DNA of 64,000 bases from Amphiscolops sp. MND2022 (taxonomy: Eukaryota), in assembly GCA_964187785.1 (NCBI GenBank), contig OZ076409.1, forward strand, positions 72,294,001 to 72,358,000. The letters are read 5' to 3'. Made by a program: the position numbers and the translations under genes. Positions within the stretch are counted from its first letter, which is position 1. Each line of letters opens with the position of its first letter. Positions 1-64,000 of this stretch are shown here, piece by piece. The notes below the pieces were generated by a model. That model did no database searches, had not been told where the DNA came from, and saw only the letters and a list, made by a program, of their open reading frames with translations.

Positions 1-789
1 GGTTCGAAATTACTATTAACAATGCTGACATTCGCTATAAATAAGATCGAGGTCAATTTACTAACACTTAGGTTATACATTTATATCTGAGAAACCATTC
101 TTTGTCAGGTCGCAATTTTAAATTTAGTTTGGGAAGCAATACTTTTCACTCTGAAGCAAACCGTTGGGCCCAAATTACTCAAAAACTACAAAAAGACTGT
201 CACCATATGCCCTAATAGCATATGAGATTCGACCGTATGTTTTTAACACAAAAACTCTCATCCGAAGTAAACATGTTGAAAGCCTTGAATCACCGTGAGA
301 AATGATTTCATCAAAAAATATTCCTTTTTCGTCAATCTTTATCTACACAGAACACGTTGTGTCATTTTCAGCCGTGAAATGAGCTTCTACCGTAATATGG
401 GTTGCTCAAGGTGTTGTATAAGACAAAAACTTCCTCTTTTCTACTATCTTCTTCAAATATTTCAACCCTTTGTCACAAGAAGTTAATATTCAAAATCTCT
501 TTGAAATGTTTCTTTAGGTTGGGGTGAAGTGTTAGAACAATAATTATGATCGAAGAATGATAGTATTGGTGTTTGGACCATGTCCGGATGAACAAATTGC
601 AAAATCATGAAAAATTTCTTACCATTTTTGGTCATTTTGTCAGTACTAAAAATGTTAGCTGAAAAAGAATTTTTTTGATGGCACCATTGGATTCCTCTCA
701 AAAAGTTAGCTATATGAGCTGTGTAATAACCCCGTATCTTTTCAATTTAAATAATTTTAAAAAGCAAACTTTTTTGACTAAAATCCTAA

Positions 790-2130
790 AAATCATACCA
801 TTTCCTAAAAAATTTCAAATGCCCCCCATTTGACGTATAAGAATAGCACAGAAAACTATCACATACCGATCGACTCTACTTCCATTGTAGATTACCAGAA
901 TTTTGTTTAGAACAATTTTTGACGGATGCAAAAAAAATTTAAACCCTCCAAAAAAGGGCCAAAATTACACGAAAAAATTGACCTTAAAATTTTAAAATGT
1001 CGAAAAATCATCAAAACCACAGCTTCTTGGGGTTCTATCAACTCCACGTGGTCCACAGAGTATGTTAAAACAAGTTTTACCCGTATTTGAGCAATATGTG
1101 AAAAAGCCGACTTTTTTGGGAATGAAAAACATACCATTTCCTAAAAAATTTCAAACGCACCCCATTTGACGTATAAGAATAGCACAGAAAACTATCACAT
1201 ACCGATCGACTCTACTTCCATTGTAGTTTACCAGAATCTTGTTTAGAACAATTGTTGACGGATGCAAAAAAAAATTAAACCCTCCAAAAATGGGCCAAAA
1301 TTACACGAAAAAATTGACCTTAAATTCTTAAAATGTCAAAAAATCATCAAAACCACAGCTTCTTGGGGTTCTATCAAATCCACGTGGTCCACAGAGTATG
1401 CTAAAACAGGTTTTACCTGTTTCTGAGCTATATATGAAAAAACCGACATTTTGGGGAAGAAAAACATACCATTTCCTAAAAAATTTCAAATGCACGCCAT
1501 TTGCCGTATGAGAATAGCACAGAAAACTATCACATACCGATCAACTCTACTTCTATTGTAGATTATCAGATTTTTGTTTAGAACAAATTTTTATGGATAT
1601 AAAAAATTTTTAAACCCTCCAAAAATGAGCCAAAATAACACGAAAAAATGGACCCTAAATTTTTAAAATGTCAAAAAATTATCCAAACCACAGCTTCTTG
1701 GGGTTCTATCAGCTCCACGTGGTCCACAGAGTATGCTAAAACAGGTTTTGCCCGTTTTTGAGCAATATATGAAAAAGCCGACATTTTTGGGGAAGAAAAA
1801 CATACCATTTCCTAAATAATTTCAAATGCAGGCAATTTGCCGTATGAGAGTAGCACAGAAAACTATCACACACCGATCAACTCTACTTCTTTTGTAGATT
1901 ATCAGAATTATGTTTAGAGTAAAGTTTTATGGATATGAAAAATTTTTATACCCTCCAAAAATGGGCCAAAATGACACGAAAAAATTGACCTCAAATTTTT
2001 AAAATGTCAAAAAATTATCCAAACCACAGCGTCTTGGCGTTCTATCAACTCCAAATGACCTTCAGAGTATACCAAACCAGGTATTGCCAATCTTTTGAGC
2101 AATATTTAAAAACACCGACTATTTGGCAAG
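790..2130. repeat. Internal tandem repeat, ~4 x 336 bp
   Basis: GARTAGCACAGAAAACTATCAC recurs at 841, 1177, 1512 and 1848. Confidence 0.9.
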
Positions 2131-2354
2131 AACACCATAATATGTTCCATATAAGAAGTGAATCATTCCACATATATACCCGGTCTAATATTTCCAACTT
2201 AGCGATAACATTTATACATGATGGTTTTTGAAAGTGAGCTTCATAAGAGGTTGAGATGTAATAATACGTAAATGGACCCTAAGTTTCATTGAAATCTCAA
2301 TGGAATACGTCCAATCAACTTCAATCCTAACTATTATATAACAATAAACACTTG

Positions 2355-2395
2355 AGTACATTCCATCTCCCCATCGGGGGAGATGAGAATGTACT
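2355..2395. other. Long imperfect inverted repeat; type example of the GTACATT internal hairpin
   Basis: AGTACATTC-CATCTCCCC-ATCG-GGGGAGATG-A-GAATGTACT. Homologues at 16388, 19076, 28359, 32450, 37220, 47954 and 52725. Confidence 0.9.
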
Positions 2396-3243
2396 TTTCA
2401 AAAGCCAAAAACTTCGAATTTTAAATCTTTTGTAACATTGTATGTAACTGTTGAAACGATGAACGAATAAAAATGCTTCTAGTACCTTCATCAATTTTTG
2501 CTTCAGCTCCTATTTCTGCAGAACAAAACCAAAAGACACACTTACAGCAGTTAAGTTCGATTGTATAACTCAGTGATATAAAGGTATGACTGAGGAAGTT
2601 CACAAGTTGTTTCAAAAGTTTCCGGCCTTCCAAAATCATGAAACGTCCACACAACCAAGATAGCAAGTGAAAGAATGCTGAATGAACCTTATTAGATGAG
2701 ATAAATAATGTGTGGAACTTGCCATTATCTCAAGATGACGTTGATTTATGATCTTTTAAGGATAGTTCGATATGTGACCACAATAGTGGAAAACTTATTA
2801 CTATTTGAAGAACACCGTGGAAAGCGTTCAGAAAGGACAGTATATTTGTTTCGAGCATGCATGCGTGTGTTCCTTTGGTGACGTTAGCTTAGTGTACATG
2901 ACGGAGGTATTCGAGAGATTATGATAGAGTTTACTCACAAGTCTTTGTTTTTTAAACTTTCTATGCCGTTGAGTACATTCGTAAGGTACATCCATCCCCT
3001 TCTCTGGGAATGTACGTTTGCCAAATGACTGTCATCCAAAATTCGTAATCCGGACGAGTTTAACTACATAAACATGTGATGAGCGTTTTCAATTCACAAC
3101 CGAATAACATTTTTTTCTCGAAAATGATGATGGTTTTGATTTTGATGTCTTCTACTTTTATCATCATGCAAACGACCTTACCATGTCTCTCTTCTGTCGT
3201 CATTTGTACAACGCCACATAGCGTTCCGACGCCCACCGTCTGT

Positions 3244-3263
3244 GGGCATGCCGAGGCATGCCC
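3244..3263. promoter_or_regulatory. Subterminal 20-bp palindrome GGGCATGCCGAGGCATGCCC (p53-response-element-like); 17 copies in the window
   Basis: Copies start at 3244, 4636, 18023, 19318, 28591, 33347, 38110, 40098, 42083, 44090, 48851, 53615, 55607, 57610, 59602, 61587 and 63574. It matches RRRCWWGYYY x2 with no spacer at 19 of 20 positions. The motif is seen directly; its function is inferred. Confidence 0.5.
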
Positions 3264-3320
3264 TTCGACGACGTATGCCAAATGAGCCATACCCGCACTC
3301 TGGAGTGCGGTAGCGGCTAG

Positions 3321-4707
3321 GTGGTTGGGGCGGTCCCCAGAACGCACAAGGAGGCGCGGGGAGGGTCCTGCGCCGACGTAGAATAATTTCATATAATACT
3401 AGTATCCTACATGGGTGTTTTAGAAGCGATTTTGGAATCTAACCGTAGGATTTGGATAATTTTTTGCATGCGGCCATAACTCGAAATTCTAAGAACTTTT
3501 TCCTACTGTCATTTTCACCGCAAATTGTTTTTTGTTGACTTATGGCCAAAAAACCGGAAATAACGTCCTTTTTAGACGTTATATCCGAAGTGTCGTCATA
3601 ACTTTTTTCCAGGGCATGCTAGCGTTCTCGTTCACTTTTACACTTAATTGCAGCATCTCAAAATACAACTGGTGGAAAATTTTGGTTGCATTCGGATCAC
3701 CCCCCACCGAGATAGAAGGGTTCCCCCCTCCAGTTTTACCCCCCAAATTTGCCAAAAAGCCAATTTTGAGCATGAAGCCGAGGGTTTAGCGTACCCGCAC
3801 CCTGTTGATGTTTTGTTGTACGTTTTGAGGTCAATCTGACGACATGTGAGGTTTTCACCCCCAACCCCCCCTGGGACCGGAAATGACACTTTTTTGTGTT
3901 TTTCGGCAGAATTTAGCCTGTTTCATTATTAGGCAGTCGTTTTAGGGACTCGTAGCAGGATATCGAAAGTGAAATACAACCTTATCACAACCCAGTGACA
4001 ACATGTTGGCCACTTGGAGGTATCATCATGACCGGAAGTGGGGTCAACCCCCCTTTTTGTGACCGCTTTTTGACCTTGTGCACCAAAATGCCAACAACTT
4101 GAGGCCTAATGACGCATTCAAATCTGTACAAAGATAGAATGTTAGACAACCGAAGTCCCGGAAGATCTTTAGCATATACCGGAAGTTACCCCCCATGACC
4201 GGAAGTTACCCAATGTGACCGGAAATGGTCCAAAAATTAATGTAAAGTTAATTTTTTCACCATTTCAAGACCACTTCGTTGAACATTTTCATTCCCAAAA
4301 CTAGCGTACTGGCTTGTTTTGCTGAAATTATGGAAATTGATGAGCTCTATCACCCCCGATAGCCTTCGAAGTTGACCTTGCGTCAACTTTGGAGGCTATC
4401 GATTCTGAAAATGAACAACAGAGTTCATTGTTGCTCTCGTTTTTTTCCGTTGTTTTTCCTCAAACATTCTTGAGACATAAAAATGGCCGTTAGTTGAAAT
4501 CAATATTTAGCCCATGTTATAGCTGGAGCAGCGAAGCGTTACACAGACTAGTGTGGTTTTGAAATTACATTATTTGAATTAACAACTGACCGTCTTAGTC
4601 AACTCCACACATTCATACCAACGCCCACCGTCTGTGGGCATGCCGAGGCATGCCCTTCGACGACGTATGACGAATCCACTCCAACGACACCCGCAGTCCT
4701 CAGCTAG
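3321..4707 (+). mobile_element. U2: 1387-bp unit, family C (related to U7)
   Basis: GTGG head with hairpins, CCGGAA cluster, GATAGCC-type hairpin at 4357-4401, palindrome at 4636-4655, CTAG end. Confidence 0.6.
4158..4226 (+). promoter_or_regulatory. Phased CCGGAA(G/A) motif cluster (ETS-like or iteron-like)
   Basis: CCGGAA at 4158, 4179, 4199 and 4219 (20-21-bp spacing). Spacing is retained in U7 at 17564, 17584 and 17604. Function is inferred only. Confidence 0.4.
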
Positions 4708-5783
4708 GTGGTTGGGGCGTTATTCCCCACGAAGTTCGCGGCCGCGGGAGACGGGACCCGCGGACCGCCCATCCAATGCAAAAATATACACTCTAAACAG
4801 CACCATTATAAACACGATCTCGAAAATGAACCGTAGGATTGTCTTGAAATTTTGCATACAGATAGAAGAGAAAATTCTAAGAACTTTTTCCTGCTGGCAC
4901 TTTTCCGAAAAAAATGTCCTTCATGGGTTTTTTCGGGTTTTTTTGGTTTTTTCTCATCTTTCTCATCTTTGATTAATCAATCACCGAATCAAAGGCCATT
5001 TTCAGCATGAAGGAATGCCCGTAGCAGCAAAGTGCACTTTTACAAAAATCATCAACGGTCAACGGTCTTTCGAACGGTCCAAAAAAATTTCCCCCCGGGG
5101 GCATCCAAAGTGCCGAAAAGTGCCAAAATATTTTTTTGGTCTGAATCATTCTGAAGAAATTGTTGATTTGAGCAGCAGGAACGGTCCGCACGGTCTCAAA
5201 TTGTAAGGGCAAAAATTGTCAGCGTTCAATGGCGGTTCCAAAAATATAAGTCAGTCACCTGTAGGAGTTGTAACAAAAAATCGATTTTTGGGTAATATGG
5301 CATGTTGAGTGGTTGGATGAGAAATACCCGTAACATGTTGAGTTTGATTTGATGCAGCAGTGGTTGCAGCTGCAGCAAACGTGAAAATGATAAAAGGGCT
5401 GGGATATATCACATGCACAAAGCAATGTTGCCATGGGGCTTTCCTTGTGCCGCAAAATGCCTCAATGCGATCATTATGTTTTTCCAAATGGGGTCGCAAA
5501 ACTAATTGTCACCGGTGTTCCTAGCGTTGCGCAGCAACTCGCAGGAACAACGGGGCTCTCCGAACGCAAAACGCAAGGCGCCCTTTCGTTGATTTGACGG
5601 CAGTCGCAGTTGATATTTTTTTGAATAAGTGATGAAATGTATCGTTGAATCCCAGAACATGTAACAAAAAAAAGGAAGGTGGAATTTCAACACATTGGTT
5701 TGTTGCTGATTTCACGTAAGCAGCAAACTTAATCAGCAACTCCTCAACTCCTCTCTCGTGGTTTGTTTAGCCTCCAGCGCTAG
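4708..5783 (+). mobile_element. U3: 1076-bp unit, family A short form
   Basis: Apparently identical to U11 (offset 16807). Shares its head and its last ~30 bp with long unit U5. Hairpin at 5512-5553. Confidence 0.65.
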
Positions 5784-10675: not shown

Positions 10676-13600
10676 GTGGTTGGGGCGTTATTCCCCACGA
10701 AGTTCGCGGCCGCGGGAGACGGGACCCGCGGACCGCCCATCCAATGCAAAAATATACACTCTAAACAGCACCATTATAAACACGATCTCGAAAATGAACC
10801 GTAGGATTGTCTTGAAATTTTGCATACGGATAGAAGAGAAAATTCTAAGAACTTTTTCCTGCTGGCACTTTTCCGAAAAAAATGTCCTTCATGGGTTTTT
10901 TTGGGTTTTTTTGGTTTTTTCTCATCTTTCTCATCTTTGATTAATCAATCACTGAATCAAAGGCCATTTTCAGCATGAAGGAATGCCCGTAGCGGCAAAG
11001 TGCACTTTTACAAAAATCATCAACAGTCAACGGTCTTTCGAACGGTTCAAAAAATTTTCCCCCCGGGGGCATCCAAAGTGCCGAAAAGTGCCAAAATATT
11101 TTTTTGGTCTGAATCATTTTGATGAAATTGTTGATTTGAGCAGCAGGAACGGTCCGCACGGTCTCGGACCATAAGGTCAAAAATTGTCAGTGAGTTATGG
11201 TGACGACCAAAATGACATTGGTTGAGCTGTAGGAGGCCTCTGAAAAAATTTGAATTTTTTGAGTCTACAATCCGAGCTGAACTGTTACGTATTATGAACT
11301 TTTCAGTACTATGTTGCCAATGACCGAGTACAGATAGATGCATGGGTCAGCCTTATTGAAATGAACATTGGGCACTGGGCTACCGGTTGAGTGCAAAAAT
11401 TATAGCCTAGTTGCTGTAGTCGAAGAAAAAAATTCTCAGAAGTGTTACTTTCAATTTGTCATGTTGACTCGGAGTTACAAAAAGGTGATTTTGTCGCCAA
11501 CAACGGTCCGAACGGTCTTGGACCATAAAATCAAAAATTGTCAGTGTGCTATGGTGACGCCCAAAAACCCACCAGAACATGCGTAGGATGCTTCTGAAAA
11601 ATTTTCGAAATTTTACGTCGGCCCAAGAGTTATTGTGTTACATCGTAACAACTTTTCGTGTATGCATATCTCCTGACAGAGTACAGATAGCATCATAGGT
11701 CATCTTTTTGAAAGTGAACGTGGGCCACTGGTGTATTGCATGGTTATAAAAAATTTTGACTAAGTGCTGCATGGCGTGAATAATATGCCAAGATGTGGTA
11801 TTTACGATATTTTAGCACGACTCGCACTGACAAAAAGCCTATTTCTGCCCCAGCAACGGTTCGAACGGTCATCAAGTATAAGGTCAAAAAATGTCAGTGT
11901 GACATGATGGCGCCTAAAAACCCACCAGAACATTGGTAGGAAGCTTCTGGAAAAATTTCGATTTTTTACGTGGGCCCGAGAGTTATGATGTTACATCGTA
12001 GCAACATTTCGTGTATGCATATCTCCTGACAGAGTACAGATAGCATTATGGGTCACCTTTTTGAAAAAGAACGTGGACCACTGGTCTATCGATTGGTTGT
12101 AAAAAGTTTTCAATCACTGTTGCACGGCGTGAATAAAATGCCAATATGTGGTATTTAGCATTTTTTTGCACGACTCGGACCTACAAAAGTCCTATTTCTG
12201 CTCCACCAACGGTCCGTACGTTTTTCGACCATAAGGTCAAAAAGTGTCAGTGTGCTATGGTGACGCCCAAAAACCCATCATTACACTTGTAGAGTGCTTC
12301 CGAAAATTTTTGGAATTTTTAGGTGAGTCCGAGAGTTATAGAGAGTTATGTTGTCACATCGTAACTACATTTCGGGAATGTATATCTCCTGACACAGTAC
12401 AGATACCAACATGGGTCATCTTTTGGAAAGTGAACGTGGGCCACTGGCCTACCGAATGGTGATAAAAAGTTTTCACCAGTTGCTACAGGGAATGATAAAA
12501 GTGCTTACATGGGTTACATAGCATTTTTTCAGGCGACTCGGACTTACAAAAAGCTCATTTGCTCGCGAACAACGGTCTGTATGGTCTCCACTCATAGGGT
12601 CGAAAATTTTTCGTGGGCTATGGTGACGCTCAAAAACCCATCAGTTCACTTGTGGGATGATTCTGTAAAAATTTAGTGTTTTCGTGCAGACTATGTTACA
12701 TATTACATTGGGAACCGTGTTTTTTTCTCACCAAAATCATGTTTCTGAGTGCCCAAAAACAATTTTTAAAGCCCAGTAGCCACCTAAAATGTTCTTTTGC
12801 ATAACATGGGATGTGAATACCGTGAAGAAAGTGCTCACTGTGGATTTGGAGTTATCTCGACAAAATCAGCTGCCATTAGACGTTACATTACAGAAAATCG
12901 TACCTTACATATCGATTCATGGGTTGAGTAAAAAACAGCTAAAGTTCTTTTTCAGTCAATCAAGACTCTTTTTTGTTCACAACCAAGTGTACAGCTGACG
13001 TCGAACCCATTTTGACCTTCCACAATGGTTATAATGCGATTTTGAGGGACAAAAGCCTCGTTGACCAACAAAGTTCCAAGATGAAATTGCTTTCCAAATC
13101 ATTTTTTGAAGTATAGGAACGCCATTTTTTGCCGACAACCATCAAATATCCACTTCTCTTGGCCCAGTGGCTTGTGAAAAATACACCTGGGCATTGACAA
13201 GGCACATGGACTTTAATTCGAGTAGTCATGTGCCACAACATTTGCTAATCGATAGCAAATTTTGTTGAAAATTGATACAACATCACATTTTTGGTGGACT
13301 CGAAATGACAAAATGGAGCTTCAGCAGCAACTATTGGCTTTTAGTGCAACTCACTGGCACTGTAATGTAGGAAAAAACGGTTTACAGTAGTTTCATGCTA
13401 CTTTTTCAGAATCTGAGGTACATAAAGTATCATACTGAATAGACATATAACTTCAACATCGGAATTTTTCCGGATGTGTCACCACTTTTGTGGTATCAGC
13501 GGTCCTACCAACAGTGTTTTTGATCTAACACTAAACCCGAGGATCAACCAAGATGTATATCAGACTTGTAAAATCAATGCAAGGACTTTCGACATGTCAA

Positions 13601-15408
13601 AAGTACTGATAAGAAGAGAAACTTCTCAAAAATTCATGTTATGTGTCATATTCCATTCCACGTTTTTTAATCGGTGCTTGTCGGTTATAGTATTAACGCT
13701 CAACAACGAGCTTACTGACAAGAAACAACTTGTTAACAGTTATAAAATGTATTTATAATACCACCATGCTCGGTCTTGGCAGATTTTTCATCCCATTCGT
13801 TCTTTACGTGTAAACTTTACTTCCCAAAAACACTATTTTTGTCAGGTCGAAATTCGAATTTTCGTGTTTTGATCAAAATTATTGTGTCTGACGTAACCTG
13901 TGGCCTCCAAAATACTGAAAAACAATAGTATGACTGCTATCAAATGCTTCAGTGACATGTGGGGCACGTTAACACGTTTTGCTAAGAAAAATTCCACTTC
14001 GAAGTGAAAATTTGGAAGACACATAGTCACAATAAAAACTGAATAGATGAAAAACGTACCTATTGCCCGTCAACCACTAATGATATAGTATCAGTATTGC
14101 GAATTAGAGGTCTATAGAGTGGTGTATGGGAAAACTGTGGCGCATAAAGCGTTGTTCATAACAAAGTTCTTCCAATATCTACAATTGTGTTTTCAAAAGT
14201 TCCACTATATTTCACATATTCACAGAATGTGATTGATGCTACCTAGTAATGGAAAACCACTGTCGAATCTTCTTTAGTGGACTCAACAGTCCTGAAAATC
14301 ACAGACATACATCACGTTTCATAATTATACGCTCGAGGCTACACAATAATTTATTTCCGCTAGTTGCTGATAACTGAATTTCCTGATAGCCTTCCAAGTT
14401 GGCCTTGTGTCAACCTGGGAAGGCTATCAGTACAAAACACAAAGAACACAGCTTGTTGTTGCCTCTAATTTGCTGTTGTTTTCGTTAAGATTTTATGGTA
14501 CCGTTTCTTTATAACATGTGGTTAACATAAGACAATTTCTCTCTGTATGGAACGACATCCATTGATAAGAAAGATTACAGTTTTTTAGTTGAAAAAGACC
14601 TTGAAACTACTGCGCAATTCATGCAATTTATCCAAAACGTTCAATCATTTCAATAATTTGCGTCCCATTGAGCGTCACAAACCACTATACCTCCTTCAAC
14701 TGACAGTACAAAGACACATCATCCTTTGACCGTCCACAGAGCGAAGGCGTGGCGAGGCACGCCTTTCGAAGACCTTTGGCAAAACAGTACTAACGTCCGT
14801 TCGTGACGCATACGAAAAACTATTTTATTTTCAACAATCGTCATAAAGCATATTTGTTATATCGGCCTTTCGTTACATTTGTGCAATGATACCTTTATCA
14901 GTGAAATATTAAGTTATACATAGGTAACTGCAGTAACTTCGTGATTACCAAAGTGATATCAAAATGTTGTTACATAAATATTTCTGACACAGCGAAATTC
15001 CAAAGTGTCATTAGGCACTTTTTCAGTGCTCGTTAGGAAAGCGAGCACTTTTGCTTGGACCAAACATGCTCGTATCAGACTGGTCATGTGAAGGCAAGTA
15101 ACGGAATCGAAACAATGTTCCTCATCAACTTTTTGGTAGCGTCAGAAACACAATGTTTGCTTTTTAATGTCCCCCAATCGTTGTTAGCTTCTGTTCATAG
15201 AGAATTGTTTCTGCGCAGACCAAAATATGGCAAGTTATCCAATACGCCTGATAACGGTTTTGCCCCACACAGAACTATCACTTAACATTTTTGTATGTTG
15301 ATATCTTTTTACCCCGTTGTTCAACAACTCATGCACCTTCATTTCTTCTTCAACAACTAACTCGCCACCTCCTTGTCGTCTCGTGGTTTGTTTAGCCTCC
15401 AGCGCTAG
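10676..15408 (+). mobile_element. U5: 4733-bp unit, family A long form
   Basis: Head near-identical to U3/U11; body close to U12. Hairpin at 14383-14430; relic subterminal block at 14706-14783. Confidence 0.65.
11148..12690. repeat. Internal diverged tandem repeat, period 353-363 bp
   Basis: AACGGT anchor at 11148, 11502, 11855, 12208 and 12571. Confidence 0.88.
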
Positions 15409-51900: not shown

Positions 51901-53691
51901 CACATACCGATCAACTCTACTTCTATTGTAGATTATCAGATTTTTGTTTAGAACAAATTTTTATGGATATAAAAAATTTTTAAACCCTCCAAAAATGAGC
52001 CAAAATAACACGAAAAAATGGACCCTAAATTTTTAAAATGTCAAAAAATTATCCAAACCACAGCTTCTTGGGGTTCTATCAGCTCCACGTGGTCCACAGA
52101 GTATGCTAAAACAGGTTTTGCCCGTTTTTGAGCAGTATATGAAAAAGCCGACATTTTTGGGGAAGAAAAACATACCATTTCCTAAATAATTTCAAATGCA
52201 GGCAATTTGCCGTATGAGAGTAGCACAGAAAACTATCACACACCGATCAACTCTACTTCTTTTGTAGATTATCAGAATTATGTTTAGAGTAAAGTTTTAT
52301 GGATATGAAAAATTTTTATACCCTCCAAAAATGGGCCAAAATGACACGAAAAAATTGACCTCAAATTTTTAAAATGTCAAAAAATTATCCAAACCACAGC
52401 GTCTTGGCGTTCTATCAACTCCAAATGACCTTCAGAGTATACCAAACCAGGTATTGCCAATCTTTTGAGCAATATTTAAAAACACCGACTATTTGGCAAG
52501 AACACCATAATATGTTCCATATAAGAAGTGAATCATTCCACATATATACCCGGTCTAATATTTTCAAATTAGCGATAACATTAATACATGATGTTTTTTG
52601 AAAGTGAGCTTCATAAGAGGTTGAGATGTAATAATACGTAAATGGACCCTAAGTTTCATTGAAATCTCAATGGAATACGTCCAATCAACTTCAATCCTAA
52701 CTATTATATAACAAGAAACACTTGAGTACATTCCATCTCCCCATCGGGGGAGATGAGAATGTACTTTTCAAAAGCCAAAATTTTCGAATTTTAAATCTTT
52801 TGTAACATTGTATGTAACTGTTGAAACGATGAACGAATAAAAATGCTTCTAGTACCTTCATCAATTTTTGCTTCAGCTCCTATTTCTGCAGAACAAAACC
52901 AAAAGACACACTTACAGCAGTTAAGTTCGATTGTATAACTCAGTGAATAAAGGTATGACTGAGGAAGTTCACAAGTTGTTTCAAAAGTTTCCGGCCTTCC
53001 AAAATCATGAAACGTCCACACAACCAAGATAGCAAGTGAAAGAATGCTGAATGCACCTTATTAGATGAGATAAATAACGTGTGGAACTTGCCATTATCTT
53101 AAGATGACGTTGATTTATGATCTTTTAAGGATAGTTCGATATGTGACCACAATAGTGGAAAACTTATTACTATTTGAAGAACACCGTGGAAAGCGTTCAG
53201 AAAGGACAGTATATTTGTTTCGAGCATGCATGCGTGTGTTCCTTTGGTGACGTTAGCTTAGTGTACATGACGGAGGTATTCGAGAGATTATGATAGAGTT
53301 TACTCACAAGTCTTTGTTTTTTAAAACTTTCTATGCCGTTGAGTACATTCGTAAGGTACATCCATCCCCTTCTCTGGGAATGTACGTTTGCCAAATGACT
53401 GTCATCCAAAATTCGTAATCCGGACGAGTTTAACTACATAAACATGTGATGAGCGTTTTCTATTCAAAACCGAATAACTTTTTTTTTCTCGAAAATGATG
53501 ATGGTTTTGATTTTGATGTCTTCTACTTTTATCATCATGCAAACGACCTTACCATGTCTCTCTTCTGTCGTCATTTGTACAACGCCACATAGCGTTCCGA
53601 CGCCCACCGTCTGTGGGCATGCCGAGGCATGCCCTTCGACGACGTATGCCAAATGAGCCATACCCGCACTCTGGAGTGCGGTAGCGGCTAG
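48929..53691 (+). mobile_element. U20: 4763-bp unit, family B long form (variant 1)
   Basis: Body matches U15 (offset ~15505). Hairpin at 52725-52765. Confidence 0.65.
51160..52500. repeat. Internal tandem repeat, ~4 x 336 bp
   Basis: Copy of 35655-36995. Confidence 0.88.
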
Positions 53692-55678
53692 GTGGGCGGG
53701 GGTAATTCCCCAACAAAAAAATCGGCCGGCGGGTCGGGTCCTGCCGGCCGTCCAAAATCAAAATCCTCCTAGTAGAAAACGGCATGTCAAACGAGCTATT
53801 TTTTTATTTAACCATACGAATTTCACCATTTTTTGCATGCGGCCCTGAAATGGCCATACGAGACGAAGTTCCTGCTGACGTTTTGCGATGTAAATGTTTT
53901 ATAAAAAGTTATGGCCGATTTGTCATTCACCTAGAAGGGTAAAATGAGGAAAATTTTAACAAAGTCGCTGATAACTCAAAATGTGGTAATTTTTGGACTT
54001 TGACTGTGAAACAAGCTTGGAACCTTCATTTCGTGGCTGGGGCATTGGACTGAACACAAAAGATGTAAAGTTTTTACGTTTTTTGAAAATTCGACATTTT
54101 TGAAATTTTTTTCACTACTATCAGTACCCCATATGTCAAAAACACCTCAGAAAAATATTTTTATTTGCTTTAAATTGGAAACCTTGGTATCCATGGTTTC
54201 TGTCGGAACCTACTCGCAGCCAAACACCCAACAGTTTGCATCCAATGTGAAAATAAAAATTTTTTCGGGGTCATAAGCGTTTCACAAGGATTTCTCAACT
54301 TAGTATTAATTTACAAAATGGTCATTTTGAACATAATATTTTCATCGAGGCTTGTCGGCTATAGCCTTAATGTTCTAGAACGGTCCCACTGGCAACGTAG
54401 CAACCATTTATAGTAATATAAAAGGTTAAAAAATTTTTTTCACCCGGTCTTCAGTCATTTTTCAGACATTCGGAACATAACTTAGAAAATTTTCGACCCA
54501 AATACCCATTTTTTGTCAGGTCGAAAATTAAAATTCAGCTATTAAAGCAAAATTATTTACTCTGACGTAACCAGTGGGGCCCATGATACTCAAAAACACC
54601 ATTGGCACTGGTACCAATGGCTCCAATAACATATGAGTCGCGATAAGACGTTATTTTGAGCAATACGTCTCAATTGAGGTAAAGATCTCGCAAGCCAGCG
54701 ATCACTGTGAAATGTAAATTCATTAAAAATTTACTCATTTTCGTCAATCACCATGTGCACAGAGTGCGTAGGGTGAGTTCCAGCACTCTAATGAGGTTTT
54801 TGAAGGCATCGGGTTGCTCAAGGGGTGGTATGAGACATTTTTTTCCTATATACTACTGTATTTTCCAATATTTTTAGCCCAATATCTGGAAATACAAACT
54901 TGACAAAATACTTTCAACTACTTTATTCAAAGGTTACAATATAGATGAACACTGTGGTTGATCAGAAACTTTCATCTCTTTCGTTTTCCGAAATATTTCC
55001 CTTCACATGTGTTATATTTTTAGCAGAATAAAAAATCGAAACTGAAATATACGCTATTTTGCTAATATAGAATCGCAATGATTGTGCCTAAAAACTCTTT
55101 AAACACTTCTAACGCAACCTTACGCACCCGAAATGATCGAAAATGCTATTCACAATTGTGACATGTGCTCTTTCTACGATCCTGGCTGGACAAGGTTTGC
55201 ATATTTTTCAAGTACCTGTCTGCTGAATCTTGTGATAGCCTTTTAAGTTGGCCTTGTGTCAACTTGGGAAGGCTATCACTTCAAACAACCATCAACAAAA
55301 ATAATTTTTGTTTATTGGATATTACAGTTGATTCCTTTTTTCGTGATTCTATATTACCGTTAGTATATTCCATGAGGTCACCTTACGATTGCATTGAGAC
55401 TTTGATAAAAACCTATGAACTCAAAGTCACATTTATATATTTTTTTGCCCAAAAAAATCATCAAAAACATCTATAATATATAAAATAGAGTCTTTAACAT
55501 TTTTACGTTTCAAGTTTCTGCCGTTATTAAGCCAATCAACTTCCTACAGCCACGCTCTCTGTCATTCTGTACAACGCCACATAGTGTTGCGACGTGCACG
55601 GTCTGTGGGCATGCCGAGGCATGCCCTTCGACGACGTATGCCGAATACCGCGGGCCTACGCCCGCGCTCCCCGGCTAG
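53692..55678 (+). mobile_element. U21: 1987-bp unit, family B 2-kb form
   Basis: Near-identical to U23 (offset 3995). Hairpin at 55232-55279. Confidence 0.65.
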
Positions 55679-57686
55679 GTGGGCGGGGAAATTTCACCCC
55701 GTTTGTATTCGGCCGACGGGTAGGGTCCTGGCGGCCGACGATCCGCCTTAAGCTAGCGGTATGTAGCAGAAATTGCAAAAAAAAGACCTAAAATTTAATC
55801 TAACCATTAGAATTTGCTCAAAATTTGCATGCGGCCCTCAAATCCTATTGCAAGACGAAGTTCCTGCTGACGCTAAGCGTTCTATAAACTTTATAAAAAG
55901 TTATGGCCAATTTTTTGTTCAAAATTTCAACATTTTTGGGAAATTTCTAATTTTTCACTTAATATCTCAAAATGTGTTAATTTTTGAACTTTGACTGTGA
56001 AACAAGCTTGGAACCTTCATTTCGTGGCTGTGGCATTGCACTGAACACAAAAGATGTAAAGTTTTTACATTTTTCGAAAATTCGAGATTTTTGAAATTTT
56101 TTTCACTACTATCAGTACCCCATATGTCAAAAACACATCAGAAAAAAATTTTTATTTGCTTTAAATTGGAAACCTTGGTATCCATGGTTACTGTCGGAAC
56201 CTACTCGCAGCCAAACACCCAACAGTTTGCATCCAATGTGAAAATAAAAATTTTTTTCTGGGTCATAAGCGTTTCACATGGATTTTACAACTTAGTTTTA
56301 ATTTACAAGTTGGTCATTTTGAACACAATATTTTCATCGAGGCTTGTCGGCTATAGCCTTAATGTTCTAGAACGGTCCTACTGGCAACGTAGGAACCATT
56401 TATAGCAATAGAAAGTTTTAAAAAAATATTTTCACCTAGTCTTCAGTCATTTTTCAGTCATTCGGAACTTAACTTAGAAAAATTTCGACCAAAATACCCA
56501 TTTTTTGTCAGGTCGAAAAATGAAATTAAGATTTTCAAGCAAAATTATTAACTCTGACGTAACCCATGGGGCCTATGATACTCAAAACAACGATTGACAC
56601 TGGTATCAATGGCTCCAATAACATATGAGTCGCGATAAGACGTTATTTTGAGCAATACGTCTCAATTGAGGTAAAGATCTCGCAAGCCAGCGATCACTGT
56701 GAAATGTGATTTCATCAAAAATTTACTCATTTTTGTCAATCACTATGTGCACAGAGTGCGTAGGATGAGTTTCAGCACTATAATGAGGTTTTTGATGTAA
56801 TCGGCCTGCTCAAGGTTGTGTATGAGACATTTTTTTCCCATATAGTACTATATTTTCCAAAATTTTTAGCCCATTATCTCAAAAACCTAACTTCGCAAAA
56901 TGCTTTCAACTACTTTATTCTAAGGTTAGAATATGAATGAACACTGTGGTTGATCAGAACCTCTCAATTTTTTTTGTTTTCCGAAAAAATACCTTCGCAT
57001 GGGTTACATTTATGGCAGAAGAGAAAGCAGAAGATAAAAAATACGCTATTTTGCTAAGATAGAAACGCGATGATTGTGCCTAAATACCCTTTAAATACTT
57101 CTAACGCAACCTTATGGACCCAATATGATTGGAAATACCGTTCACAGTCCTCACATGTACTCTTTCTACAATCCAGACTGCACATTTTTTGAAAATTTTA
57201 CATGTAGCTTTAAACTGATACTTGTGATAGCCTTTTAAGTTGACCTTGTGTCAACTTGGGAAGGCTATCACCACCAAAAACTATAAACAAAACTACCATT
57301 TGTTAATCGGATTTTGCTGTCGATGCCTATTTTCGTGATTGTATACTACCGTTAGTATCTTCCATCATGTCAGCTGACGATAGCATGCAGAGTTTGAAAA
57401 AATACCTATGAACTCGAAGACATTTTTGTTCATTATTTGGTAAATAATTTTATTTCTAAATAATAAATAACAACTTCTAACCTTTGAATACTATCACATT
57501 TGTTTTCTCTTCCGTTATCAGTCTTCCGTCACCCATGATCTGAGCCTATGTCATGACCCTGTGATTTGTATAACAACGCCACATACCAACATCAACGCCC
57601 ACCGTCTGTGGGCATGCCGAGGCATGCCCTTCGACGACGTATGCCAAATAAGCCTTACCCGCACTCTGGAGTGCGGTAGCAGCTAG
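55679..57686 (+). mobile_element. U22: 2008-bp unit, family B 2-kb form
   Basis: Hairpin at 57224-57271; body related to U18. Confidence 0.65.
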
Positions 57687-59673
57687 GTGGGCGGGGGTAA
57701 TTCCCCAACAAAAAAATCGGCCGGCGGGTCGGGTCCTGCCGGCCGTCCAAAATCAAAATCCTCCTAGTAGAAAACGGCATGTCAAACGAGCTATTTTTTT
57801 ATTTAACCATACGAATTTCACCATTTTTTGCATGCGGCCCTGAAATGGCCATACGAGACGAAGTTCCTGCTGACGTTTTGCGATGTAAATGTTTTATAAA
57901 AAGTTATGGCCGATTTGTCATTCACCTAGAAGGGTAAAATGAGGAAAATTTTAACAAAGTCGCTGATAACTCAAAATGTGGTAATTTTTGGACTTTGACT
58001 GTGAAACAAGCTTGGAACCTTCATTTCGTGGCTGGGGCATTGGACTGAACACAAAAGATGTAAAGTTTTTACGTTTTTTGAAAATTCGACATTTTTGAAA
58101 TTTTTTTCACTACTATCAGTACCCCATATGTCAAAAACACCTCAGAAAAATATTTTTATTTGCTTTAAATTGGAAACCTTGGTATCCATGGTTTCTGTCG
58201 GAACCTACTCGCAGCCAAACACCCAACAGTTTGCATCCAATGTGAAAATAAAAATTTTTTCGGGGTCATAAGCGTTTCACAAGGATTTCTCAACTTAGTA
58301 TTAATTTACAAAATGGTCATTTTGAACATAATATTTTCATCGAGGCTTGTCGGCTATAGCCTTAATGTTCTAGAACGGTCCCACTGGCAACGTAGCAACC
58401 ATTTATAGTAATATAAAAGGTTAAAAAATTTTTTTCACCCGGTCTTCAGTCATTTTTCAGACATTCGGAACATAACTTAGAAAATTTTCGACCCAAATAC
58501 CCATTTTTTGTCAGGTCGAAAATTAAAATTCAGCTATTAAAGCAAAATTATTTACTCTGACGTAACCAGTGGGGCCCATGATACTCAAAAACACCATTGG
58601 CACTGGTACCAATGGCTCCAATAACATATGAGTCGCGATAAGACGTTATTTTGAGCAATACGTCTCAATTGAGGTAAAGATCTCGCAAGCCAGCGATCAC
58701 TGTGAAATGTAAATTCATTAAAAATTTACTCATTTTCGTCAATCACCATGTGCACAGAGTGCGTAGGGTGAGTTCCAGCACTATAATGAGGTTTTTGAAG
58801 GCATCGGGTTGCTCAAGGGGTGGTATGAGACATTTTTTTCCTATATACTACTGTATTTTCCAATATTTTTAGCCCAATATCTGGAAATACAAACTTGACA
58901 AAATACTTTCAACTACTTTATTCAAAGGTTACAATATAGATGAACACTGTGGTTGATCAGAAACTTTCATCTCTTTCGTTTTCCGAAATATTTCCCTTCA
59001 CATGTGTTATATTTTTAGCAGAATAAAAAATCGAAACTGAAATATACGCTATTTTGCTAATATAGAATCGCAATGATTGTGCCTAAAAACTCTTTAAACA
59101 CTTCTAACGCAACCTTACGCACCCGAAATGATCGAAAATGCTATTCACAATTGTGACATGTGCTCTTTCTACGATCCTGGCTGGACAAGGTTTGCATATT
59201 TTTCAAGTACCTGTCTGCTGAATCTTGTGATAGCCTTTTAAGTTGGCCTTGTGTCAACTTGGGAAGGCTATCACTTCAAACAACCATCAACAAAAATAAT
59301 TTTTGTTTATTGGATATTACAGTTGATTCCTTTTTTCGTGATTCTATATTACCGTTAGTATATTCCATGAGGTCACCTTACGATTGCATTGAGACTTTGA
59401 TAAAAACCTATGAACTCAAAGTCACATTTATATATTTTTTTGCCCAAAAAAATCATCAAAAACATCTATAATATATAAAATAGAGTCTTTAACATTTTTA
59501 CGTTTCAAGTTTCTGCCGTTATTAAGCCAATCAACTTCCTACAGCCACGCTCTCTGTCATTCTGTACAACGCCACATAGTGTTGCGACGTGCACGGTCTG
59601 TGGGCATGCCGAGGCATGCCCTTCGACGACGTATGCCGAATACCGCGGGCCTACGCCCGCGCTCCCCGGCTAG
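57687..59673 (+). mobile_element. U23: 1987-bp unit, family B 2-kb form
   Basis: Copy of U21. Hairpin at 59227-59274. Confidence 0.65.
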
Positions 59674-61658
59674 GTGGGCGGGGGTAATTCCCCAACAAAA
59701 ATTACGGCCGGCGGGTTGGGTCCTGCCGGACGTCAAATAGCAAAGAATATCTAGTAGGAAACGGCGACACAGAATCGCGATTTTTAAATCTAACCACAAT
59801 TTTTTGGACTTGGAGTGCATGCGGCCCTGAAATGCCCATACGAATCGAAGTTCCTGCTGACATTAAGCGATTGAAATAATATATAAAAAGTTATGGCCCA
59901 TTTTTCACTCACAAAGAAGGGTAAAATGAGGAAATTTTTAACAAAGTCGCTGATAACTCAAAATGTGATAATTTTTGGACATTGACTGTGAAACAAGCTC
60001 GGAACCTTCATTTCGTGGCTGTGGCATTGCACTGAACACAAAAGATGTAAAGTTTTTACATTTTTTCAAAATTCGAAATTTTTGAAATTTTTTTCACTAC
60101 TATCAGTACCCCATATGTCAAAAACGCCTCAGAAAAAATTTTTTATTTGCTTTAAATTGGAAACCTTGGTATCCATGGTTTCTGTCGGATCCTACTCGCA
60201 GTCAAACACCCAACAGTTTGCATCCAATGTGGAAATAAAAATTTTTTCGGGGTCATAAGCGTTTCACAAGGATTTCTCAACTTAGTTTCAATTTACAAAT
60301 TGGTCACATTGAACACATTATTTTCATCGAAGCGCGTCAGATACCGCCCTAAAGCTCACGAACGGTCCTACTGGCAACGTAGCAACCATTTATAGTAATA
60401 TAAAAGATTAAAAAAATTTTTTCACCCGGTCTTCAGTCATTTTTCAGTCATTCGGAACTTAACTTAGAAAAATTTCGACCAAAATACCCATTTTTTGTCA
60501 GGTCGAAAAATCGAATTCAGATTTTTAAGCAAAATTATTAACTCTGACGTAACTCATGGGGCCCATGATACTCAAAACAACGATTGACACTGGTATCAAT
60601 GGCTCCAATAACATATGAGTCGCGATCGGACGTTATTTTGAGCAATACGTCTCAATTGAGGTAAAGATCTCGCAAGCCAGCGATCACTGTCAAATGTGAT
60701 TTCATCAAAAATTTACTCATTTTTGTCAATCATTATGTGCACAGAATGCGTAGGGTGCGTTTCAGCACTATAATGAGATTTTTGAATGCATCGAGTTGCT
60801 CAAGGGGTGGTACGAGACATTTTTGTCCCATATACTACTGTATTTTCCAAAATTTTTAGCCCAATATCTGGAAATACAAACTTGACAAAATACTTTCAAC
60901 TACTTTATTCAAAGATTACGATATAGATGAACACTGTGGTTGATCAGAAACTTTCATCTCTTTCGTTTTCCGAAATATTTTCCTTCGCATGTGTTATATT
61001 TGTATCAGAAAAAAAATCGAAACTGAAAAATACGCTATTTTGCTAATATAGAATCGCAATGATTGTGCCTAAAAACTCTTTAAACACTTCTTACGCGACC
61101 TTACGCACCCAAAATGATCGAAAATGCTATTCACAATGATGACATGTGCTCTTTCAACGATCCTGGCTGGACAAGGTTTGCATATTTTTCAAGTACCTGT
61201 CAGCTGAATCTTGTGATAGCCTTTTAAGTTGGCCTTGTGTCAACTTGGGAAGGCTATCACATCAAACAACCATCAACAAAAATAATTTTTGTTTATTGGA
61301 TATTACAGTTTATACCTTATTTCGTGATTCTATACTACCGTTAGTATATTCCATGAGGTCACCTTACGATTGCATTCAGACTTTGATGAAAACCTATGAA
61401 CTCAAAGTCACATTTATATATTTTTTGCCCAAAAAAATCATCAAATACATCTAATATATATAAAATTGAGTCTTTAACTTTTTTACGTTTCAAGTTTCTG
61501 CCGTTATTAGGCCAATCAACTTCCTACAGCCACGCTCTCTGTCATACTGTACAACGCCACATAGTGTTGCGACGTGCACAGTCTGTGGGCATGCCGAGGC
61601 ATGCCCTTCGACGACGTATGCCGAATACCGCGGGCCTACGCCCGCGCTCCCCGGCTAG
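59674..61658 (+). mobile_element. U24: 1985-bp unit, family B 2-kb form
   Basis: Head as U16. Hairpin at 61213-61260. Confidence 0.65.
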
Positions 61659-63645
61659 GTGGGCGGGGGTAATTCCCCAACAAAAATTACGGCCGGCGGG
61701 TTGGGTCCTGCCGGACGTTCAAATAGCGCGAAGCATCTAGTAGAAAACAAGGAGTCCTGAAACAGCGATTTTAAAATTGAACCGTTAGAATTTGGTTTTA
61801 GATTGCATGCGGCCCTAAAATCCCCATACGAATGGAAGTTCCTGCTAGCGTTAAGCGATTGAAATAATATATAAAAAGTTATGGCCTATTTTTGGGTCAC
61901 CGAGAAGGTCAAAATGAAGAAAATTTTAACTAAGTTGCTGATAACTCAAAATGTGTTAATTTTTGGACTTTGACTGTGAAACAAGCTTAGAACCTTCATT
62001 TCGTGGCTGTGGCATTGCACTGAACACAATAGATGTAGAGTTTTTACATTTTTTGAAAATTCGACATTTTTGATTTTTTTTCACTACTATCAGTACACTA
62101 TATGTCAAAAACACCTCTGAAAAAAATTATTATTTGCTTAAAATTGGAAACCTTGGTATCCATGGTTTCTGTCGGAACCTACTCGCTGCCAAACACCCAA
62201 CAGTTTGCATCCAATGTGAATTTAAAATTTTTTTCGAGGTCATAAGGGTTTCACAAGGTTTTCATAACCTAGTATTAAACTACAAACTGGTCATTTTCAA
62301 CATAATATCTTTGTCGAGGCATGTCGGATATAGTCCTATTGCTCACGAACGGTCCTACTGGCAACGTAATAACCATTTATAGAAATGTAAAGTTATAAAA
62401 AAATTTTTTCACCCGGTCTTCAGTCATTTTTCAGTCATTCGGAACTTAACTTAGAAAAATTTCGACCAAAATATCCATTTTTTGTCAGGTCGAAAAATCA
62501 AATTAGGAATTTTAAGCAAAATTATTAACTCTGACGTAACCCATGGGGCCCATGATACTCAAAACAACGATTGACACTGGTATCAATGGCTCCAATAACA
62601 TATGAGTCGCGATAAGACGTTATTTTGAACATTACGTCTCAATTGAGGTAAAGATCTCGCAAGCCAGCGATCACTGTGAAATGTGATTTCATCAAAAATT
62701 TACTCCTTTTTGTCAATCACTATGTGCACAGAATGCGTAGGGTGCGTTTCAGCACTATAATGAGGTTTTTGAAGGCATCGAGTTGCTCAAAGGATGGTAT
62801 GAGACATTTTTGTCCCATATACTACTGTATTTTCCAAAATTTTTAGCCCAATATCTGGAAATACAAACTTAACAAAATACTTTCAACTACTTTATTCAGA
62901 GGTTACAATATAGATGAACACTGTGGTTGATCAGAAACTTTCATCTCTTTCGTTTTCCGAAATATTTCCCTTCGCATGTGTTACATTCGTAGCAGAAAAA
63001 AAAATCGAAACTGAAAAATACGCAATTTTGCTAATATAGAATCGCACTGATTGTGCCTAAAAACTCTTTAAACACTTCTAACGCAACCTTAGGCACCGAA
63101 AATGATCGAAAATGCTATTCACAATGGTGACATGTGCTCTTTCTACGATCCTGGCTGGACAAGGTTTGCATATTTTTCAAGTACCTGTCAGCTAAATCTT
63201 GTGATAGCCTTTTCAGTTGGCCTTGTGTCAACTTGGGAAGGCTATCACATCAAAAAACCATCAACAAAAATAATTTTTGTTTATTGGATCTTACAGTCGA
63301 TACTTTTTTTCGTGATTCTATACTACCGTTAGTATATTTCATCAGGTCACCTTACGATTGCATTCAGTCTTTGATAAAAACCTATGAACTCAAAGTCACA
63401 TTTATATATTTTTTGGCCAAAAAAACATCAAAAATATCTAAAATATATAAAATAGAGTCTTTAACATTTTTACGTTTCAAGTTTTTGCCGTTATTAAGCC
63501 AATCAACTTCCTACAGCCACGCTCTCTGTCATACTGTACAACGCCACATAGTGTTGCGACGTGCACAGTCTGTGGGCATGCCGAGGCATGCCCTTCGACG
63601 ACGTATGCCGAATACCGCGGGCCTACGCCCGCGCTCCCCGGCTAG
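61659..63645 (+). mobile_element. U25: 1987-bp unit, family B 2-kb form
   Basis: Head as U17. Hairpin at 63201-63248. Confidence 0.65.
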
Positions 63646-64000
63646 GTGGGCGGGGGTAATTCCCCAACAAAAATTACGGCCGGCGGGTTGGGTCCTGCCG
63701 GACGTTCAAATAGCGCGAAGCATCTAGTAGAAAACAAGGAGTCCTGAAACAGCGATTTTAAAATTGAACCGTTAGAATTTGGTTTTAGATTGCAAGCGGC
63801 CCTAAAATCCCCATACGAATGGAAGTTCCTGCTGGCGTTAAGCGATTGAAATAATATATAAAAAGTTATGGCCCATTTTTGGGTCACCGAGAAGGTCAAA
63901 ATGAAGAAAATTTTAACTAAGTTGCTGATAACTCAAAATGTGTTAATTTTTGGACTTTGACTGTGAAACAAGCTTGGAACCTTCATTTCGTGGCTGTGGC
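63646..64000 (+). mobile_element. U26: family B unit, truncated by the window end
   Basis: Head matches U17 and U25. Confidence 0.6.

Follow-up and report, generated by a model that had tools for sequence, protein, structure and literature searches.

Helitron-like elements probably build megabase arrays in Amphiscolops by inserting into their own end-to-end junctions

The window analysed here is a 64,000-nucleotide stretch of the genome of Amphiscolops sp. MND2022 (G000:C1:72,294,001-72,358,000, where C1 is contig OZ076409.1), inside a 1.07-Gb eukaryotic assembly. It consists throughout of short units joined head to tail, which we regard as non-autonomous members of a divergent group of Helitron-like elements. 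From the order and the flanks of these units in the assembled genome, we infer that insertion of new copies into the junctions between earlier ones is the likely main builder of the arrays. An initial annotation, made from the letters of the window, had described a cassette-like row of non-coding elements and had proposed a rolling-circle or recombinase-driven system that targets its own end-to-end junction and builds an integron-like array.

Results

One joint repeated along the window

The sequence CTRGGTGG was found 24 times on the + strand of the window and not once on the - strand. Shuffled versions of the window held 1.50 +/- 1.27 matches and at most 6, and 24 or more were reached in 0 of 100 shuffles. 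The 25th joint is a variant, CTAG^GTGC, at 42160 (^ marks a joint, a cut or a point of insertion). Between the joints lie 24 complete units of 1,058-4,892 bp, which abut without a spacer. The earlier description of 25 spacerless junctions in one orientation was thus borne out (24 of the form CTRG^GTGG and one CTAG^GTGC, against 1.5 by chance), and its figure of at least four or five families proved too low, as the units fall into 12 families at 75% whole-length identity. Only two related families, of 4.76 kb and 2.0 kb, occupy bases 28,665-64,000. As had been claimed, identical units have different neighbours: U3 and U11 agree at 1,076 of 1,076 positions and are flanked by different units. U1 matches the end of U15 at 3,302 of 3,318 positions, and U21 differs from U23 once in 1,987. 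The pair U14-U15 is found again as U19-U20 at about 98.5% identity, a recurrence that may be the copying of a two-unit block.

The view that the units are non-coding was also upheld. The longest stop-free frame in the window is 198 aa; 73 short frames from U2, U4-U8, U14 and U16 gave no Pfam family above its cut-off and two weak matches below it; the window units had no codon periodicity and no match in Rfam, and tblastn with the transposase open reading frames (ORFs) described below found no match in them. Cargo genes in the 4.7-4.9-kb units, suggested by splice-like motifs and long ungapped blocks, were rejected, since the variation lacks codon phase and every frame contains stops. The long units do contain internal tandem repeats of 336-363 bp, in 2-4 copies that are 78-90% alike. 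The features of the window are as follows.

1..64000 (+): 64-kb section of a head-to-tail Helitron-like array of about 6.03 Mb
1..3320 (+): U1, the 3' portion of a non-autonomous unit of 4.76 kb, of the same kind as U15 and U20
3244..3263 (+): example of the subterminal tail palindrome common to many families and several autonomous elements
3293..3310 (+): example of the last hairpin ahead of the 3' CTRG
3317..3324 (+): first junction, CTAG^GTGG
3353..3374 (+): example of the second head hairpin, with its GGG-N(1-4)-GGG-N-CC core
Other cuts (+), after 4707, 5783, 10675, 15408, 16692, 18099, 19386, 20456, 21514, 22590, 27304 and 28664
Remaining cuts (+), after 33424, 38186, 40169, 42160, 44166, 48928, 53691, 55678, 57686, 59673, 61658 and 63645
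3321..4707 (+): U2, non-autonomous, 1,387 bp
4708..5783 (+): U3, 1,076 bp, the same sequence as U11; ends in ~30 bases that match the tail of an autonomous element on contig C3
5784..10675 (+): U4, 4,892 bp, with an internal repeat of ~363 bp
10676..15408 (+): U5, 4,733 bp, 92% identical to U12, with an internal 353-bp repeat
15409..21514 (+): U6-U10, five families (1,284, 1,407, 1,287, 1,070 and 1,058 bp); the 3' end is CTGG in U6 and U10
21515..22590 (+): U11, identical to U3 but set between other units
22591..27304 (+): U12, 4,714 bp, family of U5
27305..28664 (+): U13, 1,360 bp; 82 bp of its head are duplicated exactly (27305-27468)
28665..38186 (+): U14 and U15, 4.76-kb units with internal 336-bp repeats
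38187..44166 (+): U16-U18, 2.0-kb family, 80-91% mutual identity; U18 starts with GTGC
44167..53691 (+): U19 and U20, 4.76-kb units, each ~98.5% identical to U14 and U15
53692..64000 (+): U21-U25 (2.0-kb family) and the head of U26
Internal tandem repeats of the long units: 789-2139, 7094-7790, 11466-12674, 23380-24548, 30894-32164, 35654-36997, 46398-47664 and 51160-52509

Ends of the units

We sampled 221 units, which form 47 families. All 221 start with GTGG or GTGC and none with TC or TT; the 3' end is CTAG in 200, CTGG in 20 and CTTG in one. The heads carry two hairpins, the second of which has a conserved GGG-N(1-4)-GGG-N-CC core. Its arms vary in sequence between families yet covary: for 22 arm pairs, folding with the own partner gave -6.0 kcal/mol against -3.7 +/- 0.33 with shuffled partners, and 0 of 2,000 shuffles did as well. 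The tails end in CTRG, preceded in many cases by a palindrome and a final hairpin, which is strong in some families and weak in others. The 3' 4-mer was uniform in 28 of 29 families, but the 4-mer upstream of the heads was mixed in 9 of 23 head families. Since the 3' 4-mer follows the family of the element, it belongs to the element, and a four-base target duplication was ruled out on the same ground. A boundary ahead of CTRG was ruled out as well, because CTRG stays with the tail where host DNA follows, and a 4-mer of this type stands only once in the empty sites. As to subterminal inverted repeats, one of 163 head/tail pairs reached 11 bp with one mismatch, no more than among shuffled partners.

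One family of about 2.2 kb (L131, L141, L143) starts with GTGGA and joins at the same base without the usual core of the head hairpin. The sampled units fall into length classes of ~1.0-1.1 kb (21 units), 1.3 kb (98), 1.4 kb (9), 2.0 kb (59) and 4.7-4.9 kb (15). These tight classes are common to unrelated families. Between related units, long stretches align without gaps at 65-75% identity and show no coding signal; the mobile form may be under a constraint on its size.

Autonomous elements with the same ends

The initial annotation had suggested a search for a longer unit with the same termini that encodes a RepHel/HUH endonuclease or a tyrosine recombinase, and a unit of the former kind was found in the array at C1:24.0 Mb. 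It is 13,675 bp long, has both ends, and carries a 2,373-aa ORF and two smaller ones. Autonomous units are in general 12-14 kb long, have the same ends as the short units and encode a 2,200-2,600-aa protein that combines a HUH Rep, a Pif1 helicase and a GIY-YIG domain, plus an OB-fold protein; the four covered whole measure 12,049-13,675 bp. The 2,373-aa protein scored above the Pfam cut-off for Helitron_like_N (PF14214) and PIF1 (PF05970) and just below it for GIY-YIG. Its modelled Rep region (mean predicted local distance difference test score, pLDDT, 77) had one significant match in the PDB, the Helraiser transposase 7LCC (E 4e-8); in a sequence comparison with 7LCC the helicase alone matched. 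Two hallmarks of the Helitron superfamily are therefore present, namely a single ORF with a HUH Rep followed by a Pif1-like helicase, and non-autonomous copies that share the head core and the tails with autonomous ones. We regard it as almost certain that the units are Helitron-like elements.

A 300-aa piece of the Rep had at least 135 matches in the genome, at 31-100% identity. Ten more loci picked across this range all end in CTRG^GTGS beside short units (10/10); the HUH motif was present in 10/10, the two tyrosines of a YxxxY motif in 9/10, and a GIY-YIG-like domain was recognised in 10/10 by means of a profile derived from relatives (E 5e-32 to 4e-5). The 35 Rep matches in the big array around the window are all on the + strand with 0 internal stops, which fits ongoing transposition. 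Array copies of the transposase are mostly intact, and many scattered copies (on contigs C13, C12, C7 and C5) contain stops; the arrays may shelter or renew active copies.

The ORF downstream of the transposase is conserved and also occurs in metagenome relatives. In structural models its product looks like an RPA/CST-type OB-fold protein, a likeness that holds for the fold class only, given low template modelling (TM) scores. The third ORF product resembles SGNH/GDSL hydrolases, which we offer as a lead. An ORF of ~200-275 aa stands before or after the transposase in several autonomous elements (L016:7359-8027 on the - strand, L040, L050 and L046), and the one that was compared is the SGNH/GDSL-like one. 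None of the 11 autonomous units examined, all of the Rep/helicase type, has a recombinase ORF, a finding that does not extend to the rest of the genome, where no such search was made; a Pfam scan of the 13,675-bp unit gave no recombinase match either. A Crypton or other tyrosine recombinase, considered at one stage, was dropped when the Rep ORF was found.

The target site and its re-creation at each junction

Copies that border on host DNA define the target. All six flanks upstream of a head end in CTDG (CTTG, CTGG and CTAG, two each). Downstream of one tail type, the listed host bases were A in 27, T in 10 and C in 0 cases at position +1 and T in 34 of 37 at position +2, and a further 25 host flanks read GT and then a base other than G; this listing leaves out the class G followed by non-T, and its last-base filter hid some cases. 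A solo unit of 1,256 bp lies within a Gypsy element, with CTTG on its left and GTCC on its right; six of six other copies of that Gypsy element run through uninterrupted as CTTG^GTCC, with a single CTTG. Likewise, an array of 16 kb at C1:29.53 Mb lies between CTAG and TTGGATTTT, and three of four natural copies of its host repeat read CTRG^TTGG at this place. A two-unit array has CTGG at its left and CTAG at its right. The second Gypsy locus (L021) was too diverged for an empty-site comparison. The elements thus insert at CTDG^DT without target duplication, and the dispersed copies, which the initial annotation had singled out as a check, keep the same boundaries as the copies in arrays. Since the 3' end of one element gives CTRG and the head of the next gives GT, each junction is itself a target.

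Relatives in other sequence sets point the same way. A distant element from estuary metagenomes, seen twice at 99.8% identity, has CTGG and CTAG as 5' flanks before a GT start, and a third metagenome contig reads CTGG^GT ahead of a hairpin. Judged by these three junctions, the target rule extends beyond this host.

Preference for junctions and the order of units

Of 2,086 copies of one tail type, 1,998 are followed by GTGS, that is, 96% are joined to another head. Host sites that fit the 6-base consensus number about 4.9 million (extrapolated from 368 in 80 kb), so the consensus cannot by itself explain the arrays. The 221 sampled units (447 kb) contain 1,125 fitting sites, and none was seen to be used: we found neither a head on the opposite strand nor a unit truncated at such a site. 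Of the apparent exceptions at internal sites, three turned out to be overlooked junctions whose head is a variant, one a remnant of 78 bp and one a deletion. The claim that the elements target their own junction therefore stands in a weaker form: there is a strong preference for the junction, but the minimal site is only CTDG^DT, and insertions into host DNA occur at a low frequency.

The order of the units was then compared with what copying of whole stretches would give. Adjacent twins of at least 97% identity occur at 9 of 183 junctions, and the unit that follows is the same for both twins in 9 of 133 cases, the one that precedes in 9 of 125. As near-identical copies rarely share neighbours, neither plain concatemers nor block duplication explain the order. 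Nevertheless, neighbours of the same family are enriched (80 of 183, against 50.4 expected and a maximum of 60 in 1,000 within-array shuffles), and within a family neighbours are no closer to each other than shuffled ones. A shuffled order combined with kin-enriched neighbours fits independent insertions with a junction preference tuned to the family. Linkage between sequences on the two sides of a junction was low, at 6 of 80, compared with 0.22-0.66 at nine internal offsets. The notion of units as independently moved cassettes is thus supported in that the order is shuffled unit by unit, and it needs amending in that families are often mosaic and reshuffling is not confined to junctions.

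Arrays along the genome

The array that contains the window starts in host DNA at C1:70,454,838 and ends at about 76,487,313, an extent of ~6.03 Mb that rests on its two ends and 18 spaced 8-kb samples of its interior. In seventeen of these samples 92-100% of the sequence is element DNA in + orientation; the remaining sample is inverted. Family composition is biased by region along this array. Genome-wide, 2,651 copies of a 23-base tail motif were counted, against 0 for a control, and the 100 places listed lie mostly in clusters of one orientation. Further arrays stand on C1 at 3.5, 24.0, 29.5 and 38.1 Mb and on other contigs, and near-identical units are present in arrays on different contigs.

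Inverted segments in or beside arrays, which leave arrays facing each other, were seen at L148 (C1:76,050,001-76,058,000), L014 (C1:23.97-23.98 Mb), C2:102.0-102.6 Mb and on C1041; a 200-N gap lies within the region C1:23.97-24.03 Mb, and some of the inverted segments may be scaffolding effects. The array at C2:102.0-103.9 Mb, with many intact transposases, reaches to about 30 kb from the end of its 103.9-Mb contig, and other arrays lie 2-4 Mb from contig starts (C1, C3, C9). Inside the big array, tails are followed by DNA other than a head at C1:70,687,483, 74,376,703, 76,005,424 and 76,236,350, where host remnants, foreign insertions or deletions may be present. Solo copies and array starts are flanked or hosted by retrotransposons that we take, from their motifs, to be BEL-like and Gypsy-like, and by another transposase-like ORF (L013, C1:38,180,722-38,183,032; L021; L023; L025); of the Gypsy family, at least 40 copies are 99-100% identical over 200 bp. 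The genome also contains canonical Helitrons at dispersed positions, together with several HLE2-like families, a diverse group whose long ORFs are intact (L052-L097).

A separate branch of Rep proteins

A search of 1.84 billion representative proteins gave 474 relatives at E <= 0.001. The named ones come from Myxine glutinosa (hagfish) and Styela clava (tunicate), and most others from assemblies including aquatic metagenomes. The closest of these others are, to judge from their sequences, probably from the same species, one being at zero distance to an array protein. Among 19 relatives scanned, GIY-YIG was found in 12 and DUF6570 in none; altogether, DUF6570 is present in 0 of 20 clade proteins versus 6 of 7 HLE2-like references. 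Two database relatives (P0035, P0018) have an OTU-like protease domain in the same ORF. No relative was found among viral contigs with either alignment, and a profile search of a set of 5.8 billion proteins returned the query's own first row alone.

Trees of the Rep core were built with dispersed ordinary Helitrons of the same genome as references, two HLE1 rows (each taken from this genome and assigned on the strength of Pfam score and motif) and seven HLE2-like rows. In both trees, which were quick, unrooted and without bootstrap, the second omitting 10 of 42 rows (two long branches and eight near-duplicates or close kin), the array proteins and their database relatives stood on one side of a long branch with a Shimodaira-Hasegawa-like approximate likelihood ratio (SH-aLRT) support of 100, apart from HLE1 and the HLE2-like rows. 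The seven HLE2-like rows formed a side of their own with a support of 96. The array Reps accordingly appear in these trees as a distinct branch, whose age the trees do not give.

Discussion

Proposed mechanism

HUH enzymes, as the available portions of PMC5876387 describe, nick DNA, form a 5'-phosphotyrosine, let a strand be peeled off and give circles with joined ends. We propose that an element 5'-GTGS...CTRG-3' inserts at 5'-CTDG^DT-3' in a related manner, and that the units of the window are non-autonomous ones moved in trans by the 12-14-kb autonomous elements of the same arrays. The HUH Rep would nick the + strand at CTRG^GTG and hold the 5' G on its tyrosine, the Pif1-like helicase would peel the strand, and a second nick past the tail hairpin would close a circle at CTRG^GTG. 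Because a chromosomal junction has the sequence of the circle origin together with the hairpins, the transposase could bind, nick and join an incoming copy there; the freed 3' end at the nicked junction would accept that copy far more often than a bare 6-base host site would. As each junction is itself a target, every insertion there would make two junctions out of one, with orientation fixed by strand polarity, and a rare insertion into host DNA would seed a new array. Each transposase may favour the junctions of its own kin, which would give family-rich runs of non-identical copies, and recombination between related units would add mosaicism. From the type of domain, one may guess that GIY-YIG cuts the second strand or a flap and that the OB-fold protein coats single strands. 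As to the two kinds of machinery first proposed, the rolling-circle branch is favoured by same-end Rep/helicase units, kept boundaries and the favoured junction, and a recombinase is not needed.

A number of observations weigh against junction insertion as the main builder, or narrow what can be claimed for it. Our argument is drawn from the order of units as assembled. Of 43 pairs in the largest family whose 5' thirds are at least 98% identical, 11 have 3' thirds below 90%, so homologous exchange also reshuffles the arrays. At one internal offset linkage was 27 of 296 (0.09), as low as at the junction. Recurring two-unit blocks were in excess (4 versus 1.2; 53 of 2,000 shuffles gave at least as many). 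Neither regression nor permutation told recognition of the head from recognition of the tail at the target, both similarities being raised among neighbours. The window units share with 11 autonomous elements only short terminal or subterminal stretches of 47-680 bp, and for this reason the exact autonomous partner of each window family was not assigned. Finally, neither flank of the metagenome relative held a tandem neighbour; the arrays may be peculiar to this host.

Competing explanations

Tandem Helitrons and their head-to-tail junctions in plants, bats and Drosophila have been ascribed to rolling-circle replication (available portions of PMC5876387, PMC5148889, PMC11934779 and 10.1101/2021.06.02.446622). 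By extension, read-through at the tail could produce tandem copies that integrate together and are later mixed by recombination and turnover, and the enrichment of same-family neighbours and the return of U14-U15 as U19-U20 agree with this. However, concatemers predict identical neighbours, and these were found at the 9 of 183 junctions already mentioned (in a first sample 4 of 140 versus 2.3 in shuffled order, not significant); moreover, 103 of 183 junctions join different families at exactly the same base, and transposases only 31-42% identical coexist in the same arrays. We consider this origin improbable, and slightly more improbable still a satellite-like evolution, in which unequal crossing-over, gene conversion and block duplication would have enlarged and shuffled a small number of seed tandems, transposition playing little part. 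The mosaic units, the few repeated two-unit blocks and the regional family bias along the 6-Mb array are what such a process would leave, but exchange inside homologous units keeps pairs of tail and head together, and yet near-identical tails share the next head in 6 of 80 cases. Near-identical units in arrays on different contigs, the 16-kb array and the two-unit array that each occupy a single host target site, and the 35 stop-free Rep matches that fit ongoing transposition argue against it as well.

The remaining explanations are far less probable. If the 6-base consensus alone were recognised, arrays might arise by local re-insertion near the donor or by selection against other insertions; host sites are indeed used, and Rep copies often have stops outside arrays and mostly lack them inside. 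Yet local hopping would use the 5.1 fitting sites per unit, on both strands, of which 0 of 1,125 were seen used, and selection would need to purge, by rough odds, about 99.99% of host insertions in a genome that keeps many dispersed young repeats; we therefore give this little credence. An assembly artefact in the order or length of the arrays, to which the one inverted sample and two 200-N gaps in or beside arrays might point, seems equally far-fetched, as the units differ by 1-25% or are unrelated, the junctions are base-exact, ORFs of 7 kb are intact and the host flanks of small arrays join up with natural empty sites. The least credible is an integron-like store of cassettes, driven by a recombinase for the benefit of the host. 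One orientation, exact joints and hairpin ends do resemble cassette arrays, but the window units contain neither cargo genes nor known RNA families, no recombinase ORF occurs in the 11 autonomous units examined (the rest of the genome was not searched for one), and solo copies insert into host repeats as transposons do. Of the integron-like array first proposed, the geometry alone remains: the units have no genes, and autonomous units bring their own enzyme.

Junction-targeted insertion can be put in a bolder form, as a self-targeting site-specific system in which many deeply diverged transposases share one attachment core rebuilt by their own ends, giving self-growing megabase domains with a chromosomal role (centromere-like, heterochromatin or germline compartment). 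The self-targeting part by itself is likely; the whole, with its chromosomal role, is doubtful.

Relation to known systems

The comparisons that follow draw on the available portions of the papers cited. With HLE1 (Helraiser, 7LCC) the array elements share a HUH Rep fused to a Pif1-like helicase, an ORF running head to tail, the absence of target duplication, a 3' hairpin with a CTRR-type end, and an RPA-like gene downstream of RepHel, a feature of HLE1 according to HELIANO. They differ in that they start with GTGG/GTGC and not TC, insert at CTDG^DT and not A^T, have a C-terminal GIY-YIG, and have a Rep outside the HLE1 clade, on a separate long branch. With HLE2 (Helentron/Helitron2/proto-Helentron) they share hairpins at both ends and an extra endonuclease in the transposase. 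Some motif features of the array Reps resemble those of HLE2 as well. One HLE2 family with a captured GIY-YIG has been described from Sphagnum (PMC11417382). The array elements nevertheless lack the subterminal inverted repeats (11-18 bp in HLE2), DUF6570, the AP endonuclease and the T^T target, and stand on a separate branch. The features that define HLE1 and HLE2 were taken from PMC11417382 and PMC4067079.

The third Helitron clade, of Paramecium (PMC13085455), is the nearest eukaryotic parallel, going by its description rather than by a common tree. It too falls outside HLE1 and HLE2, is target-specific and strand-biased, has a 3' end (CCAA) that resembles the target repeat, as CTRG does in the array elements, and builds whole chromosome compartments out of autonomous and non-autonomous copies. 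In contrast, its targets are host telomere repeats, which flank each copy, and its ORFs are of 9-10 kb; the array elements end in CTRG and are flanked by other elements or ordinary host DNA, and we found neither telomeric flanks nor a CCAA end. The Paramecium Hel01 ORF, inspected by eye, ends shortly past the last helicase motif, with no room for GIY-YIG, and the term GIY had no match in the portions of the text and supplements of PMC13085455 that were searched. IS91 elements (PMC13181058) share a HUH enzyme, the absence of target duplication, a 4-base target, a terminal cleavage 4-mer like the target (also found here) and subterminal palindromes at both ends. They differ in being bacterial, small and without a helicase (PMC5876387), against the 2,373-aa fusion found here, and long mixed arrays are not described in the available portions of PMC13181058.

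Tandem Helitron arrays and Helitron-derived satellites of plants, bats and Drosophila have head-to-tail junctions and clustered copies in common with the arrays. Those published are, as far as they are described, repeats of one element or of an internal piece, whereas here 47 families make up 221 units and twins are rarely adjacent. Integron cassette arrays consist of oriented units joined at one site, with folded ends and a tyrosine recombinase that acts on gene cassettes; in the units examined here we saw no tyrosine recombinase and no cargo genes, and the units carry their own enzyme. A literature search, outside of which lay Repbase, Dfam and most subscription journals, gave no account of the junction, of a Helitron clade with GIY-YIG or of mixed arrays with junction targeting. 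The unclassified Helitron-like clusters of HELIANO, so far as they are described, might include the lineage of the arrays.

Significance

Helitrons are known as nearly unselective inserters (at A^T or T^T), and their tandem arrays have been ascribed to rolling-circle run-on. The divergent branch described here has a defined 6-base target, re-created by its own ends, and dozens of its families share oriented arrays of up to 6 Mb. The ends of this lineage would be missed by tools that seek TC...CTRR or short inverted repeats. If junction targeting is true, it would be a strategy for using a harmless site without a host gene, and a new route by which transposons make megabase repeat domains. It would also give a handle on integration, the least understood step of Helitron transposition, with a defined target and many intact natural transposases, and an inserter of large cargo that finds a planted junction would be of interest to genome engineers.

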